NCBI GenBank assembly: GCA_029548485.1
Contig: JAKPNH010000006.1
Coordinates: 13,937-77,936, forward strand
Length of the DNA stretch: 64,000 bases
DNA from: a bacterium
GTDB lineage: Bacteria; Patescibacteriota; Minisyncoccia; UBA6257; Colwellbacteraceae
Direction: 5' to 3'
The position numbers and the translations under genes are program-made. This document shows, in pieces, positions 15,799 through 44,615 of this stretch. A model generated the notes under the pieces. The model worked only from the letters and a program-made list of their open reading frames with translations. It was not told where the DNA came from and did not search any database. Position 1 is the stretch's first letter; every line of letters starts with the position of its first letter.

Positions 15799-15888
15799 TG
15801 GCGGAGAGGCAGGGATTCGAACCCTGGAAGCCCTTGCGAGCTTAACACGTTAGCACCGTGTCCCATTAGACCGCTCTGGCACCTCTCC
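15799..15888 (-). tRNA. tRNA-Ser (anticodon GCT), with a long variable arm. CCA is encoded.
   Basis: Manual fold: anticodon loop GTGCTAA, variable arm AAGCTC-GCAA-GGGCTT, T-loop TTCGAAT. Confidence 0.85.
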
Positions 15889-38497: not shown

Positions 38498-39184
38498 ATG
38501 ACTGTTTTAAATTGGTTGGAGCCATTCGGATGGGCGATCCAGAGATTCTGGTATGAATATCTGTCGCAGCCGTTTATGACTTTGCTCGGTGCGGCGGTCC
38601 TGTTCATCATCGGACTTTTCATCGCGCGCCTTATCGAAAGGTTGGTCGCCCAGGCGGTCAGAGCCTTGAGAATAGATTCGCTTTTGAAGAAAGCCGGAAT
38701 CGAGCCGTATCTCGATCGGGCGAACATCAAACTCGACAGCGGAAAGTTCTTCGGAAAGCTCATCTATTGGTTCATCGTCGGCGCTTTGCTTTTGGTGATC
38801 GCCGACAAGTTCGGCCTTCCGGTGGTGTCGCAATTCATCAGCACCATTTTGAGCCAGGCGACCAGTTTCGTCGGCGCCATCGTCATATTGGTGCTCGCGG
38901 TCATCGTGGCGAATTTCGTCCGGAGCGTCATCCGGGCGGCGGCCATGGGCGCGAAAATGCAGTCGGCGAAACTCATCAGCGTTTTGAGCTGGTGGATCAT
39001 CGTCTACTTCGGCTTGGAGAACGCCTTGAGCAAATTGGGCATCGATATCAGCTTGCTCAAGAATCTGATCTACATTCTCGGAGTGGGACTGAGCTTCGCG
39101 GTCGCCATCGCTTTCGGCATGGCCGGCAAGGATTACGCCAATTCTTTGATCGAGAAATGGCGGGATCAGGTGGACAGGGATTAA
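38498..39184 (+). CDS. Integral membrane protein with an internally duplicated TM module (MscS-associated 'conserved TM helix' type)
   Basis: Two similar halves, 'LIYWFIVGALLLVIADKFGLP' and 'WWIIVYFGLENALSKLGIDI'. Confidence 0.5.
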   Translation: MTVLNWLEPFGWAIQRFWYEYLSQPFMTLLGAAVLFIIGLFIARLIERLVAQAVRALRIDSLLKKAGIEPYLDRANIKLDSGKFFGKLIYWFIVGALLLVIADKFGLPVVSQFISTILSQATSFVGAIVILVLAVIVANFVRSVIRAAAMGAKMQSAKLISVLSWWIIVYFGLENALSKLGIDISLLKNLIYILGVGLSFAVAIAFGMAGKDYANSLIEKWRDQVDRD

Positions 39185-39214
39185 TCCCCGAAAAAGCTTG
39201 ATTTTGAAGGAAAA

Positions 39215-39245
39215 CAGCCCCGCAAGCGCGGGGCTGTTCCTGTTC
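39215..39245 (+). terminator. Intrinsic terminator
   Basis: cagccccgc-aagc-gcggggctg followed by TTCCTGTT. Confidence 0.6.
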
Positions 39246-40061
39246 TCGGCGGGCCAGGCCGGGGGTTGACACGGCCAAAGGCCTGCCTGTATAATTCCTC
39301 TCAGATGATGATGCGAAAGATTCACATAAAACGCGGCTCATGAAGTCTTAGTTTTGGTGACTGAATGAACCGCGAAAGCGGTTTTTTTGTTGAGACGACC
39401 GGTATTTCAAAAAATGAATATAATTTGCGCCGACAAACACGGCGCAAAGCAGGAGTCCGCAAGTTCAAACTGGCGGACTTAATTGGCATTTAAATGACCG
39501 GTTTATTTTTTTAAGGGCGCATGGAGGATGCCTTGACACAAAGTGACGATGAAGGACGCGGCGTAGCGGCGATACGCCTCGGGGAGGCGCGTAGCAGCCT
39601 TCGATCCGGGGATTTCCGAATGGGGAAACCCAATCCCGCAATCCGGGATTGATTCCGCACGTAAGTTGCGGAATAGTCGACCCGCTGAAGTGAAACATCT
39701 TAGTAAGCGGAGGAATAAAGAACAATTGTTATTCCCTTAGTAGCGGCGAGTGAAAAGGGAAGAGCCCAAACTTGTTTGAAGTTTACGGCGCAAGCCGGAA
39801 ACGGAAAGCGAGGGTAGTAAGATAGAGACATTCTATTTATGAAGCCGCTCGATGAGAAATCGGAGAGCGACTTTATAAATAGAGGAAAGTTACAAAATGG
39901 TTCGTTAGCCGAATGGACTGGAAAGTCCGGCCAAAGGGAGTGAAAGCCTCGTAGGCGAAAACGAATCATCTTTCTTGTTTTTAATCTTGAGTACTTCGAT
40001 GACAGGAAGCTTCGAAGGAATCATCCCGAACTATCGGGAAAGGCTAAATACACTTTGTGAT

Positions 40062-40098
<37 letters not shown>

Positions 40099-42075
40099 CA
40101 GCCCGGTGAGGGCGGTGAAATAGAACTGAAACCATGTGCTTACAAGGACTCGGAGCCCCGCTTCGGCGGGGTGACGTGGTGCCTATTGAAGAATGAGCCA
40201 ACGACTTTATATTGACTGCTCGGTTAATCCCGCTTTGCGGGAGCAGCCACAGGGAAACCTAGTGTTAAAAGCGCGAACGTCCGCAAGGACAAGGTAGTCA
40301 ATATAAGACCCGAAGCCAAGCGAGCTTACCTTGGTCAGGATGAACTTCCGCGAAAGCGGGAGGGAGGTCCGCACCAGTTGATTGTGCAAAATCTTTGGAT
40401 GAACTGAGGTAAGTAGTGAAAAGCTAATCGAGCTTGGTAATAGCTGGTTCTCTCCGAAATAGTTTTAGGACTAGCGCCAAGAACCGCTTTAGCGGGGGTA
40501 GAGCTACTGGTTTGGTGGTAAAGGGCGAAAGCTCGGCCACCGAGTCAAACTCCGAATACCGCTTTAGAAAAACTTGGTAGTCAGACTGCGGAGGCTAAGC
40601 CCCGTGGTCGAAAGGGAAACAGCCCTGACCGTCATCTAAGGTCCCCAAATTCTTGCTAAGTGTTAAAGGCAGTGCCATGCCATCGACAGATAGGAGGTTG
40701 GCTCAGAGGTAGCCATCCTTTAAAGAGTGTGTAACAACTCACTATTCGAATCCCGCTTTGCGGGAGTGGCGTGACGCGCCGAAAATGTACCGGGGCTAAG
40801 CAAGATACCGAAGATACGGATGTTTCGCGCAAGCGAAGCATGGTAGGAGAGCATTTGGAGCGCGCCGAAGGTCGACCCGCGAGAGCGACTGGAGTGCTCT
40901 GAAGAGAGAATGTTGGCATGAGTAACCCACTTAACCGGTGGGAAACCGGTTCCCCGAAAATCCTAGGTTTCCGTGGCAATGGCAATCATCCACGGGTTAG
41001 GCGGCCCTAAGGCAATGGCGAAAGCCGCAGCCGATGGACTGTTGGTTAATATTCCAACCCTTCCATTTCTTTCGACGGGAGGACGAAGCGCAGTAGGCCA
41101 GGCATCTCAATGGTTTGGTGTCCGTGGTCTAAGGATGGCATTCTGGCAAATCCAGGTGCCTGTCTTTGATGGCGAATCCAAGGACAGCGGCGAATCAAAG
41201 CATTTACTTTGGTGAGTTGGTTGAGCGCGTTTCCGCGAAAAATCTCTAAGGTTAAAGGAATGGAATCCGTACCGGAAACCGACACAGGTGGATAGGGCGA
41301 GTAGCCCAAGGGGTACGAGTGATTTCTCTTTAAGGAACTCGGCAAACAAGCGACCGTAAGTTAGCGATATGGTCTTCCCGCCGCAAGGCGGGACGCAGCG
41401 AAAGTCTCTCTGGCGACTGTTTACTAAAAACACAGCTTCCTGCGAACTCGTAAGAGGATGTATAGGAGGTGACGCCTGACCGATGCGAGAAGGTTAACGG
41501 CGGGGGTGAATTCGGAGCAATCCGGATTTGCTCGCTGCCCGAAGCCCTCGTCAATGTCCGCGGTAACTATAACCGTGTTAAAGTAGCGCAATTCCTTTTC
41601 AGGTAAGTTCTGAAGCGCATGAATGGCGTAACGATCAGAGAACTGTCTCAAAGAGAAGCTCGGTGAAAATGCGATTCCCGTGAAGACGCGGGATACCTGC
41701 AGCTAGACAAGAAGACCCCGGGAGCTTTACTGCAACTTGGTATTGGCTTTAGGGTTTGGATGCGTAGCGTAGTGGTGAGGCTTTGAAGTCTTGTTTTCGG
41801 ATGAGACGGAGCCGACGATGAAACAGCCATCTTTCAAACTTTAAACTCTAACCTTAAGGGCAAAAACCTTAGGGAACAGTGCCTGGCGGGCAGTTTTTCT
41901 GGGGCGGAATCCTCCCAAAGAGTAACGGAGGAGTTTATTAAGGTCAGCTTGGCTCGGATGGAAATCGAGCCTGAAGTGTAAAGGCATAAGCTGGCTTAAC
42001 TGCGAGACCCACAAGTCGAGCAGATGCGAAAGCAGAACTTAGTGACCCGACGAATCTTTATAGAAAGGTCGGAGA

Positions 42076-42109
<34 letters not shown>

Positions 42110-42245
42110 GGTGTTGTCCGAGAGTCCCTATCGACGACAACGCTCGGCACCTCGATGTCGGCCCACCCTAGCGCGGGGCTGGAGAAGGTCCCAAGCGTGT
42201 GGCTGTTCGCCACTTAAAAGGGTACGCGAGCTGGGTTTAAACCGT

Positions 42246-42502
42246 CAGTTTGGCGGCTTTCCCGAGCAATCGGGATTGAAAAAGCTTACTCATATCGGTG
42301 AAGTCCTAAACTTATAATTGCGATATAACCTGTCAATATTTAGGATAATACCGAGGGAAGTTTGCTTTATTGAAATAAAGCATAACCCCGTAGAGACTTG
42401 TTCCTGAGGGAACGGATGGAAGAAATCTTCCATAAGACGTAGGCCTCCATTGAAAAATGGATGATGGTATAGTCCACACATTTGGTAACAGATGATTCAA
42501 TG
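42246..42502 (+). other. Intervening sequence in 23S at the L2593 site (a classic group I intron site). 257 nt, no ORF.
   Basis: By alignment to E. coli, the 5' exon ends at U2593 and the element ends in G. It has GNRA hairpins (CCCGA-GCAA-UCGGG; CUUUAUU-GAAA-AAUAAAG). Confidence 0.6.
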
Positions 42503-42565
42503 CGTGAGACAGGTTGGTTTTTATCTGCTGCAGGCGTGAAGTGTTTGAGGGAAGTCGACCCTAGT

Positions 42566-42969
42566 GGGCGCGAAAGCGCCTTGCTACTTTGCGGAGTAAT
42601 CCGTAATGACAATGTGGCTTATAACGGTGAAGCCTTCCTTGTTTCTGAAACCAAAATGGATTGTTCCAAAGCATCGGTCCGCTTCGGAACATGTTAATTG
42701 CTTGAGGACCAGAAATAAAAAGGTAATACCGTGGGAAGTCGACCCAAAAACATTGATTTAGCTCATATCGCCGGATTTTTGATGGCGATGGCGTTTTATC
42801 AATTATTGGGTTTGACCCCGTAACGACTTGATCGAAGAGATCGGACTTATATGGATCCAAAGCCTTAAAGGCGGGTCTACATAGGTAATATGCCGCCACC
42901 CCACTATTTCTTTATAGGAATAAGGGTGAAGATATAGTCTACGCTCCTAGAAATAGGGGAATGTACGTG
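42566..42969 (+). other. Intervening sequence inside the sarcin-ricin loop (after U2656). 404 nt, no credible ORF.
   Basis: The exon 'GACCCUAGU' | 'ACGAGAGGACCGGGUU' is split. The element ends in G and has GNRA hairpins (GGCGC-GAAA-GCGCC; CUCCUA-GAAA-UAGGGG). Confidence 0.55.
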
Positions 42970-43048
42970 ACGAGAGGACCGGGTTGAACGAACCTCTGGT
43001 CTATCGGCTTTGCCACCAGGCGAATCGCCGAGTAGCTATGTTCGGAAG

Positions 43049-43081
<33 letters not shown>

Positions 43082-43259
43082 CATCCCAAGATTAGACACT
43101 AGACCCCCGGAAGACTACCGGGTTGATAGGCTCAAGGTGTAAGACAGGCAACTGTTTCAGCCGAAGAGTACTAATAGGTCGTTTATAGACCGGTCATTTA
43201 AGCGCCAATTATATTTAATTCATACTATTGAAATTAGGAACGAAAACGATTAGTATTAT

Positions 43260-43374
43260 CCTGCTCGGTGATTAATCGCATGGTGCACCACCCGATCCCA
43301 TTCCGAACTCGGAAGTGAAAGCCGTGCGGGTCGATGATAGTCCTTTGGGCGAAAGTAGATTTTGCCGGGCATTT
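43260..43374 (+). rRNA. rrf: 5S rRNA
   Basis: 'CCCATTCCGAACTCGGAAGTGAAA'. Helix I is GCUCGGU/GCCGGGC. Confidence 0.85.
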
Positions 43375-43377
43375 GTC

Positions 43378-43416
43378 AAAAGGCCTCCGCCAAACCGGGG
43401 GCCTTTTGTTTCTCTT
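43378..43416 (+). terminator. Intrinsic terminator of the rRNA operon
   Basis: AAAAGGCCTCC-N8-GGGGGCCTTTT followed by a T-rich tract. Confidence 0.7.
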
Positions 43417-43442
43417 TCCGCTTTTGATTAATATTTACCTAA

Positions 43443-43538
43443 ATGCAAAGATTGACCAAACAAATCGTCTACGGGTTGTTTTTCCTGGCCTTGATCGGGG
43501 CCCTAGCCGCGGCCCTGCGATTTTTGGCGAGCCGATAA
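43443..43538 (+). CDS. Possible 31-aa single-TM micro-protein abutting rodA
   Basis: 'MQRLTKQIVYGLFFLALIGALAAALRFLASR', ATG to TAA in frame, 6 nt before rodA. Confidence 0.3.
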   Translation: MQRLTKQIVYGLFFLALIGALAAALRFLASR

Positions 43539-43544
43539 CGCACC

Positions 43545-44615
43545 ATGGGATTCCTGAAAAAACTTGATTGGCAGTTGAACCTGAGCGTCGGCCTGCTTTT
43601 GCTTTTTGGTATCTTGACGCTCGCTTCGAGCACCGAAGTCTTGATTTGGCGCCAAACGCTTTGGATTCTGGTCGGCGCGGCCATCATCTTTTCCGTTTCT
43701 TTCATCAACCTCAAGAGGCTGATGAGCTACCGGTGGGTGGTGATCGTCATCTATCTGGTGAGCGTCGGCCTTTTGATTCTCACCTTATTGATCGGCAGCG
43801 AAGCGGGCGGAAACAAAAGCTGGATCAACATCGGAAGTTTCAAATTCCAGGCTTCGGAATTCGCGAAGATCGGACTGATCGTCATCCTTTCGAAGTTTTT
43901 CAGCCGCAGCCACATCGGCATCAAAAGATTCGGCGTGATCTTCACTTCTTTCGTCTATCTCCTGGTGCCGGTTTTCCTGATTCTGCTTCAACCGGATCTG
44001 GGAACGGCCCTTATTTTCGGAAGCATCTGGGCGGGATTCCTTTTGGTCTCCGGGCTGCCGATGAAATACGTAGCCGTGGCTTTGCCGATCCTCCTTTTCT
44101 GCGGGCTGATCATCTGGAATTTCGGGCTCCAGGGCTATCAAAGGAACCGCATCATCGGCCTTTTGAAGCCGGATGCAGATCCGCTGGGAGTGAATTACAA
44201 CGCCATCCAGTCGAAAATCGCCATCGGCTCCGCCGGCTGGTTCGGCAAGGGATTTAGCCAGGGAGCCCAGGTGAGGCTCGGATTCTTGCCGGCGGCGCAG
44301 ACCGACTTTGTCTACGCGGCTTTTACCGAAGAATGGGGTTTTGTCGGCGCCATGGTTCTGGTTATCGTTTTCCTTTGGATGATATGGCGGATCCTCCAGA
44401 TCGGAATGAAAAGCCACGGGAATTTCGACAAATTCATCTGCATCGGAAGCGCTTTGCTTTTCATTTTCCAGTTCGCCATCAACGTCGGCTCCACCCTCGG
44501 TTTTCTGCCGGTCATCGGCGTCGGGCTGCCTTTCGTGAGCTACGGCGGCTCGAGCCTGTTGACCTCGTTTATTTTGATCGGTATCATTCAAAACATTGCC
44601 GCGACCACGATTTAA
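43545..44615 (+). CDS. rodA: SEDS-family peptidoglycan glycosyltransferase (RodA/FtsW)
   Basis: Ten TM helices, 'LDWQLNLSVGLLLLFGILTL' and 'KIAIGSAGWFGKGF'. Confidence 0.85.
   Translation: MGFLKKLDWQLNLSVGLLLLFGILTLASSTEVLIWRQTLWILVGAAIIFSVSFINLKRLMSYRWVVIVIYLVSVGLLILTLLIGSEAGGNKSWINIGSFKFQASEFAKIGLIVILSKFFSRSHIGIKRFGVIFTSFVYLLVPVFLILLQPDLGTALIFGSIWAGFLLVSGLPMKYVAVALPILLFCGLIIWNFGLQGYQRNRIIGLLKPDADPLGVNYNAIQSKIAIGSAGWFGKGFSQGAQVRLGFLPAAQTDFVYAAFTEEWGFVGAMVLVIVFLWMIWRILQIGMKSHGNFDKFICIGSALLFIFQFAINVGSTLGFLPVIGVGLPFVSYGGSSLLTSFILIGIIQNIAATTI

Follow-up and report, generated by a model that had tools for sequence, protein, structure and literature searches.

A group I intron with the remnant of a homing endonuclease gene in the sarcin-ricin loop of a patescibacterial 23S rRNA gene

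An insert between the two halves of the sarcin-ricin loop

The DNA analysed here, hereafter the window, is a stretch of 64,000 nucleotides (nt) from a bacterium of the Colwellbacteraceae (Patescibacteriota; assembly GCA_029548485.1, contig JAKPNH010000006.1). It carries a 23S ribosomal RNA (rRNA) gene whose sarcin-ricin loop (SRL) is split by 404 nt. An initial annotation, made from the letters alone, had placed this insert between U2656 and A2657 and had proposed that it is a group I intron, which must be spliced out if the loop is to be rebuilt. Both proposals stand, the first owing to the letters themselves, to an alignment with the large subunit (LSU) rRNA model and to an identical, independent contig, the second owing to structure, covariation and homology to more than 100 introns located at the same site. 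The host gene is organised as follows.

39501..43181, forward strand: 23S rRNA host gene with two introns inside; 2050 bits against the bacterial LSU model RF02541, the 3' part being aligned to model position 2912 across both inserts
42555..42565, forward strand: end of the 5' exon, made of the helix 95 5' strand UCGACCC followed by UAGU; UAGU is the exon strand of helix P1, and its final base is U2656
42566..42969, forward strand: group I intron, 404 nt, at site L2656 (also listed as '2657', 23IS14)
42970..42987, forward strand: start of the 3' exon, ACGAGAGGACC (A2657 onward, GAGA loop included), with the helix 95 3' strand GGGUUGA

The letters read GGGAAGTCGACCCTAGT, with T at 42565, then the insert, GGGCGCGAAAGCGCC...GAATGTACGTG (42566-42969), then ACGAGAGGACCGGGTTGAAC from 42970. 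Because a single split, U/...G/A, with the U preceding the insert and the G as its last base, regenerates the SRL sequence AGUACGAGAGGACC, the boundary is unambiguous. In the Rfam bacterial LSU alignment, the flanks are the two halves of helix 95 and of the SRL, separated by some 414 unaligned nt, and the stem of helix 95 is intact, with zero non-canonical pairs flagged; at the curated threshold of Rfam the LSU match ends at 42561. In Escherichia coli numbering, where the GAGA loop of the SRL spans G2659-A2662, the boundary is U2656/A2657. This agrees with the 'position 2657' of a published survey of insertions in 23S genes (Tsurumaki et al., 2024, J Bacteriol, PMC11270868), so that the site, unfamiliar as an intron site to the initial annotation, is in fact a listed one, 23IS14. 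The insert is not an assembly artefact, since a metagenome contig assembled independently (JGI) is 100% identical to the window over positions 40175-44000, insert included.

An intron family with a covarying secondary structure

The comparison advised at the outset was with the 23S genes of related bacteria of the candidate phyla radiation (CPR). One genome per species was scanned for GATATAGTC followed, after 15 to 45 nt of any sequence, by ACGAGAGGACC, a pattern that is impossible unless the 23S gene is interrupted. Introns at this position were present in at least 120 species-level genomes, nearly all of them from CPR/Patescibacteria; among the matches listed, the hosts were Parcubacteria groups, Microgenomates, WWE3 and many metagenome-assembled genomes (MAGs) labelled Saccharibacteria, and the base before ACGAGAGG was G in 120 of 120. 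The 5' junction was located in 103 relatives, where the intron always follows ...AGU (103/103). With that of the window, this makes 104 introns, 101 of which display the guide sequence UUGCUAC within their first 40 nt or so; lengths in the family range from 279 to 889 nt. A leave-one-out family profile (nhmmer, 98 members, window excluded) matches the window at 42559-42759 (E=1.4e-36) and again at 42800-42979 (E=3.3e-35). The insert is a bona fide group I intron and belongs to a large, site-specific family.

Among the MAGs that carry such introns, dozens are labelled 'uncultured Candidatus Saccharibacteria', others, few in number, 'Gammaproteobacteria', 'Mycoplasmatales', 'Nanoarchaeota' or 'Elusimicrobiota' (L002-L118). 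The rRNA genes of Saccharibacteria are described as essentially devoid of group I introns (PMC11270868), and some of the 23S flanks found under those labels are 81-86% identical to the Parcubacteria-like window. Either the labels of bulk submissions are unreliable or the range of the intron is wider than published.

Helices were assigned from an alignment of short family members and compared with the minimum free energy (MFE) fold of the window intron taken alone. The elements of the intron are listed below, helices being numbered P and joining segments J in the usual manner of group I introns.

42566..42581, forward strand: hairpin extending P1, GGGCGC-GAAA-GCGCCU; seen in the MFE fold and in a minority of family members
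42583..42586, forward strand: internal guide sequence GCUA, the G of which forms the U·G wobble of the 5' splice site together with U2656; P1 cells 99% paired
42589..42606, forward strand: P2 hairpin with a GUAA loop; compensatory changes in 7 of 7 pairs
42614..42618, forward strand: P3 5' strand GUGGC, partner 42892-42896; compensatory changes in 4 of 5 pairs, 99% paired
42624..42628, forward strand: P4 5' strand ACGGU, partner ACCGU at 42728-42732; 100% paired, one pair with changes from G-C to A-U
42632..42724, forward strand: P5 and its variable extension; GCCUU (42632-42636) pairs with AAGGU (42720-42724), and the extension contains a conserved GGUCC / CUUGAGGACC helix
42738..42816, forward strand: P6, GUCGACCC (42738-42745) with GGGUUUGAC (42808-42816), one U bulged; compensatory changes in 7 of 8 pairs
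42817..42828, forward strand: J6/7 CCCGUAAC and P7 5' strand GACU (42825-42828); nearly invariant in 99 introns
42830..42885, forward strand: P7.1 (42830-42842) and P7.2 (42846-42885), predicted between P7 and P3' in the MFE fold
42892..42896, forward strand: P3 3' strand GCCGC, partner of GUGGC
42898..42927, forward strand: P8 hairpin; base of the stem covaries; MFE fold
42928..42939, forward strand: J8/7 and P7 3' strand GAAGAUAUAGUC, where AGUC (42936-42939) pairs with 42825-42828 and forms a pseudoknot with P3; matches the RF00028 consensus and is invariant in the family
42941..42968, forward strand: P9.0 (ACG 42941-42943 with CGU 42966-42968) around P9 (CUCCUA-GAAA-UAGGGG, 42944-42959); compensatory changes in 9 of 9 pairs
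42969, forward strand: terminal guanosine (omega-G) at the 3' splice site; G before ACGAGAGGACC in 120/120 loci among the matches listed

The core helices thus come in the canonical order P1-P2-P3-P4-P5-P6-P7-P3'-P8-P7'-P9. The U before the insert and the G at its end, noticed from the start as fitting a group I intron, find their place in this architecture, as partner in the U·G pair of P1 and as G42969, respectively. Exon UAGU pairs with the guide sequence in 98-99 of 99 introns, and the U·G pair itself is present in every sequence of both the large (99/99) and the small (26/26) alignments. The two GNRA-capped hairpins that had been pointed out are also there: GGCGC-GAAA-GCGCC (42567-42580) is the P1 extension, with counterparts of a similar kind in five relatives (L019, L049, L036, L079 and L009), while CUCCUA-GAAA-UAGGGG is P9. 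In the region of the presumed guanosine-binding site, A-[C bulge]-GACU pairs with AGUC-U, J8/7 GAAGAUAU fits the consensus of RF00028, and P7 is without variation. The 62-nt loop of P6 (42746-42807) folds as an extended hairpin in the MFE fold. Finally, P7.1 and P7.2 show several pair types among the relatives that can be aligned there, in a region that aligns poorly. Such helices between P7 and P3' are a hallmark of subgroup IA, and because two of them are predicted we infer that the window intron is subgroup IA-like.

Covariation was formally counted in an alignment of 26 diverse sequences, the window among them, and more broadly in 99 introns. In the former, 94.5% of cells are paired, as against 34-43% in controls where the structure was slid along the alignment, and 35 of the 51 pairs show compensatory changes; the covariation score reaches 0.521 versus at most 0.121 for all slid controls, and none of 500 shuffles scored as high. 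Nearly all pairs are kept in the 99 introns, with many pair types in P2, P3, P5, P6, P8, P9 and P9.0. Besides these variable pairs, 77 alignment columns are invariant across the 26 sequences, the window included. The MFE fold of the window intron (-140.6 kcal/mol, z=-7.29 with respect to shuffled sequences) recovers the P1 extension, P2, P3, P4, P5, P6, P7.1, P7.2, P8 and P9.

A scan with the very general Rfam group I model RF00028, suggested in the initial annotation, gives a mixed answer. At the gathering threshold of 50 bits no intron match is obtained in the insert, which amounts to a false negative, but in E-value mode the model partially matches it (42803-42960, 29.1 bits, E=4e-5), taking in GAAGAUAUAGUC and the terminal GNRA hairpin. 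Because this score lies below the threshold, routine annotation misses the SRL intron. A group II intron was considered as well and rejected, as no Rfam group II family matched anything in 42000-43400, even at E<=10.

Parts of the intron look like its exons. The 'exon-like' GCUCCUAG noted just before the 3' end does exist, but it is simply the 5' strand of P9 with the first G of its GNRA loop. As a mimic of the 5' exon it was rejected, since it does not vary together with the exon of its own host (99 loci, permutation p=0.39); being no closer to that exon than to the exons of others, its resemblance is incidental. Similarly, a 13-nt segment, GGGAAGTCGACCC (42735-42747), is identical to exon positions 42549-42561. 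Duplication or a nested element was rejected here too: the copy is a coincidence, because GGGAAGUC belongs to the core and does not vary anywhere in the family, and GACCC is part of the covarying stem of P6. In the P5 extension, the motif CUUGAGGACCAGA (42701-42713), conserved at most loci and pairing with the upstream GGUCC, has GAGGACC in common with GAGAGGACC, which is the SRL's 3' half; this sharing may reflect chance or an element of tertiary contact.

An endonuclease gene in decay, and a second intron

Two further features complete the picture.

42731..42823, forward strand: remnant of a LAGLIDADG gene, 30 codons in frame, MGSRPKNIDLAHIAGFLMAMAFYQLLGLTP followed by a stop codon; GTG in the P4 3' strand, TAA in J6/7, GFLDGDG catalytic motif deleted
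42246..42502, forward strand: second group I intron of the same 23S gene, 257 nt, without open reading frame (ORF), at site L2593; boundaries CCGU/CAGUUUGG...UUCAAUG/CGUGAGACAG

The insert had been described as lacking a credible ORF and therefore a homing endonuclease. This is right in so far as no functional gene is found; it overlooked, however, the relic of one, 30 codons of a LAGLIDADG gene still in frame within the P6 loop. The largest forward-strand ORFs wholly inside the insert encode 51 and 30 amino acids (aa); a 71-aa ORF of the same strand (42482..42697) extends into it from the exon upstream, and most of it is covered on the reverse strand by an ORF of 112 aa (42561-42899), which reaches 5 nt beyond the upstream edge of the insert. 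Pfam found zero matches in the 51-aa and 112-aa products, and neither was retained as a gene, the antisense ORF also because it spans most of the ribozyme.

What the 30 codons are is told by the relatives. The P6 segment between AAUACCGUGGGAAGU and CCCCGUAACGACU has at least 431 nt in 71 of the 103, at most 45 nt in 18 and an intermediate length in 14; it is 76 nt long in the window. About two thirds of the relatives encode there a LAGLIDADG endonuclease of some 160 aa, similar to I-CreI and I-MsoI, whereas 32 of the 103 are without a full ORF, 14 with partial relics and 18 with no trace at all. In 64 relatives the ORF has about 157-170 codons, starts with GTG within ACC-GUG-GGA, that is, in the 3' strand of P4, and stops with UAA within CCCCG-UAA-CGACU, in J6/7. 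The intact ORF of one relative (L015) belongs to LAGLIDADG_1 in Pfam (E=8.6e-10), and the nearest solved structures to its product are I-MsoI, I-CvuI and I-CreI, with E-values of 1e-15 to 1e-10 against the native chains of about 160-170 aa; a fused, 373-aa single-chain form of I-MsoI matches the family endonuclease at 3e-28. These three enzymes are homodimeric, single-domain endonucleases of L2593 introns.

The relic reads MGSRPKNIDLAHIAGFL-MAMAF-YQLLGLTP and a stop, where intact proteins read MGSRSKIDLAYIAGFLDGDGS...LYQLLGLTP and a stop. It has thus kept 17 N-terminal and about 8 C-terminal residues in frame, while the acidic DGDG motif and the body of the protein are gone; Pfam finds no match in it. 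At the RNA level it folds as an extension of P6 in the MFE fold, and the match of the family hidden Markov model (HMM) breaks off exactly there (42760-42799). Judged from its sequence, the window intron plainly did carry a homing endonuclease in the past. From intact gene to partial relics and to a clean loop, all at one site, the family offers a clear picture of the decay cycle of homing endonucleases. A metagenome scan for exact matches to the P1-extension junction peculiar to the window found nothing and thus brought up no close relative whose endonuclease gene is more complete.

Two observations concern the placement of these genes. The GTG start lies 6 nt downstream of AAGGU, the 3' strand of P5 and a possible Shine-Dalgarno sequence (42720-42733 in the window, with the stop within 42817-42823; likewise in L015, L005, L094 and about 60 other loci). 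Since both start and stop codons sit in the ribozyme core, this suggests that folding and translation are mutually exclusive. In a Nomurabacteria MAG (L029), an ORF of about 160 aa is located in the P5 extension (638 nt; intron positions ~58-696) and the P6 segment has only 27 nt, which suggests independent invasion by an ORF, or its relocation.

The second intron of the gene bears on the origin of the family. It, too, scores below the Rfam threshold with RF00028 (42.6 bits against 50), and it is matched by the HMM of the SRL family (E=3.2e-17), so the introns at L2593 and in the SRL are homologous. Their kinship is mirrored by the affinity of the family endonuclease with I-CreI and I-MsoI, L2593 being the site of I-CreI. 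By a speculative and rather improbable reading, the SRL family arose when an intron of the I-CreI type left L2593 together with its endonuclease and jumped to the SRL, being retargeted in the process. With the L2593 introns of green-algal chloroplast LSU genes (hosts of I-CreI, I-MsoI and I-CvuI) the family shares a single-domain endonuclease, about 160 aa long and encoded in the P6 loop, and, as predicted, two helices between P7 and P3'; the chloroplast intron Cr.LSU is of subgroup IA3 and has its ORF in L6. They differ in the site (2656 versus 2593), the DNA target, the guide sequence and the hosts, bacterial here and organellar there. Beyond its two ORF-less introns, the window displays no other LAGLIDADG gene and no further group I intron.

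Splicing, competing explanations and known relatives

Altogether, we consider it very probable that 42566-42969 is a subgroup IA-like group I intron which sits in the bulged-G motif of the SRL, splices, and has lost its endonuclease and with it the capacity for homing. Splicing would take the usual group I route. In the pre-rRNA, exon UAGU and guide GCUA would form P1, where the splice site would be marked by the U·G wobble of U2656. A free guanosine would be bound in P7 by the core, made of the P3-P8 and P4-P6 domains tied by the P3/P7 pseudoknot, and this guanosine would attack after U2656. Its place would next be taken by G42969, the last base of the intron, which P9.0 would hold in position, and the freed 3'-OH of U2656 would attack before A2657, joining CCCUAGU to ACGAGAGGACC and remaking a normal SRL, perhaps by autocatalysis in vivo. 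Meanwhile, the stem of helix 95 (UCGACCC / GGGUUGA) could form across the intron and hold both exons. The ancestor would have been a mobile element, homing by means of a single-domain I-CreI/I-MsoI-like LAGLIDADG endonuclease encoded in its P6 loop; an in-frame deletion would have collapsed the gene to 30 codons, removing the catalytic acidic residues. As the endonuclease is dead, the window copy would be immobile, persisting only through splicing, in line with a core that is intact and with the large number of relatives that lack an ORF.

Several points weigh against so complete an account. For the window copy, as for the other introns at this site, splicing is a prediction made from DNA. P1, P4 and P7 are essentially invariant, which makes covariation uninformative precisely there, neither favouring nor opposing the pairings. 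The alignment to RF00028 is limited to the 3' half of the intron and its score falls short of the gathering value, a limit set for detection with a very general model and not a criterion of structure. The subgroup was deduced from P7.1 and P7.2. No convincing P10 with the 3' exon could be drawn by eye, the sole pair being A+1 with U17. The single endonuclease characterised in the survey cited above, I-ShaI, comes from another site, 23IS7 (PMC11270868). Lastly, the view covers 64 kb of the genome, and a second, intron-less 23S copy could in principle lie outside it.

A first competing explanation accepts the group I intron but makes it dependent on a protein, a LAGLIDADG maturase acting in trans or a host RNA chaperone, so that a copy without ORF would splice poorly or conditionally. 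Some LAGLIDADG proteins do double as maturases, I-AniI for example, and the elusive P10, the partial alignment to RF00028 and the 71 family members that keep a full-length P6 insert all fit such a dependence. We nevertheless find it unlikely: the members with no ORF trace or with mere relics are numerous, the core helices of the window copy are all intact and thermodynamically strong, no maturase gene of the LAGLIDADG type accompanies it in the window, and CPR usually have one 23S gene (PMC11270868).

The second explanation, that of a dead or decaying 23S pseudogene from which the insert is never removed while a working gene operates elsewhere, draws on the same restricted genomic view and on the fact that 16S is not adjacent to the 23S-5S pair. 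It is very improbable. Against the bacterial LSU model the exons reach 2050 bits, their conserved helices are intact, and the 5S gene that follows is normal; each of the two inserts coincides exactly with a recurrent intron site and is bounded as U/...G; and compensatory change has preserved the helices of the intron in over 100 species, evidence that folding is under selection. Furthermore, where CPR genomes have, as usual, a single 23S gene, 82% of those genes contain insertions (PMC11270868). The third explanation is an intervening sequence excised by RNase III and never religated. Fragmenting inserts of this kind do exist in bacterial 23S genes, probably in CPR at 23IS2 and 23IS4 (PMC11270868). 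The present insert is not a simple long stem-loop at the tip of helix 25 or 45 but a multi-domain, pseudoknotted fold inside the SRL, in which the group I architecture is complete, with the U·G pair at the splice site and the G at the end. Such excision would also leave 23S rRNA broken within the SRL, where a backbone break, as made by alpha-sarcin, inactivates ribosomes. This explanation is extremely improbable.

The reading as a spliced group I intron also fits what is known of CPR. Tsurumaki et al. (2024) described 14 recurrent insertion sites in CPR 23S genes, 2657 (23IS14) being among those rich in LAGLIDADG_1, with insertions of group I type (PMC11270868). The insertion point, the hosts (CPR/Patescibacteria) and the type of intron are the same as here, and relatives of the window intron encode single-domain LAGLIDADG_1 proteins, as reported there; what sets the window copy apart is the lack of an endonuclease, the 30-codon relic and a P1 extension hairpin of a minority type. 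Because its score is below the Rfam gathering value, an Rfam-based survey of that kind would probably leave it unclassified. In the parts of the article covered, no secondary structure, covariation analysis or splicing test was found for the 2657 site. No further account of an intron in the SRL came up in the literature searched, and the site is absent from the list of Nawrocki et al. (2018; PMC6125680). Other bacterial 23S group I introns are cited at L1917, L1931 and L1951, in Thermotoga, Coxiella and Simkania (Nesbo and Doolittle, 2003, as cited in PMC13011429); these are in domain IV, in the region of helices 69-71, unlike the present one, in the SRL of domain VI. Patescibacteria also have group I introns in tRNA genes, at anticodon position 35/36, and self-splicing in vitro was demonstrated for two of them (PMC13011429). 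They share with the SRL introns the host phylum and are mostly of subgroup IA and mostly without endonuclease gene, but they are much smaller, interrupt tRNAs and use other guide sequences.

The intron of the window thus adds one degenerate member to a kind already described, and since site and intron type were published in 2024, current understanding is unchanged. Added here are a structure backed by covariation, the position of ORF start and stop in the ribozyme core, a series of stages in the decay of the ORF, and the homology between the SRL and L2593 introns. The SRL, among the most conserved and critical of RNA motifs, is routinely interrupted at the gene level across a large bacterial radiation; as a consequence, correct ribosome function in these CPR would depend on an RNA splicing step. 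In practice, as both introns score below the Rfam group I threshold, the 23S gene will be cut short or wrongly annotated by standard pipelines. A covariance model specific to the family could be started from the alignment and structure obtained here. It may also be asked whether the SRL intron is more than a tolerated parasite and whether, in CPR with a single rRNA gene, the rate of its splicing controls like a switch how many active ribosomes are available, for instance via the dependence of the first step on GTP or guanosine, as unspliced 23S rRNA cannot activate EF-G or EF-Tu. We regard this as quite improbable; were it true, it would explain why ORF-less copies with intact cores are kept rather than deleted.

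A few minor features of the neighbourhood deserve mention. The 5S gene lies 3' of the 23S gene (43264-43370), no small subunit (16S) rRNA gene was matched anywhere in the window, and a 272-aa ORF on the reverse strand (38507-39500) stands directly upstream of the 23S gene; the rRNA genes of this genome appear to be unlinked, with 16S apart from 23S-5S. Domain I of the 23S rRNA has two short expansions with respect to the bacterial model, of about 20 nt (~39780-39799) and about 59 nt (39830-39888), which are probably lineage-specific helix extensions, too short for introns. Elsewhere, positions 15799-15888 weakly match RF04351, a plastid psbI-rps4 3' untranslated region family (36.7 bits, below threshold), antisense to a tRNA-Ser(GCU) gene, almost certainly a chance resemblance to the complement of the tRNA.

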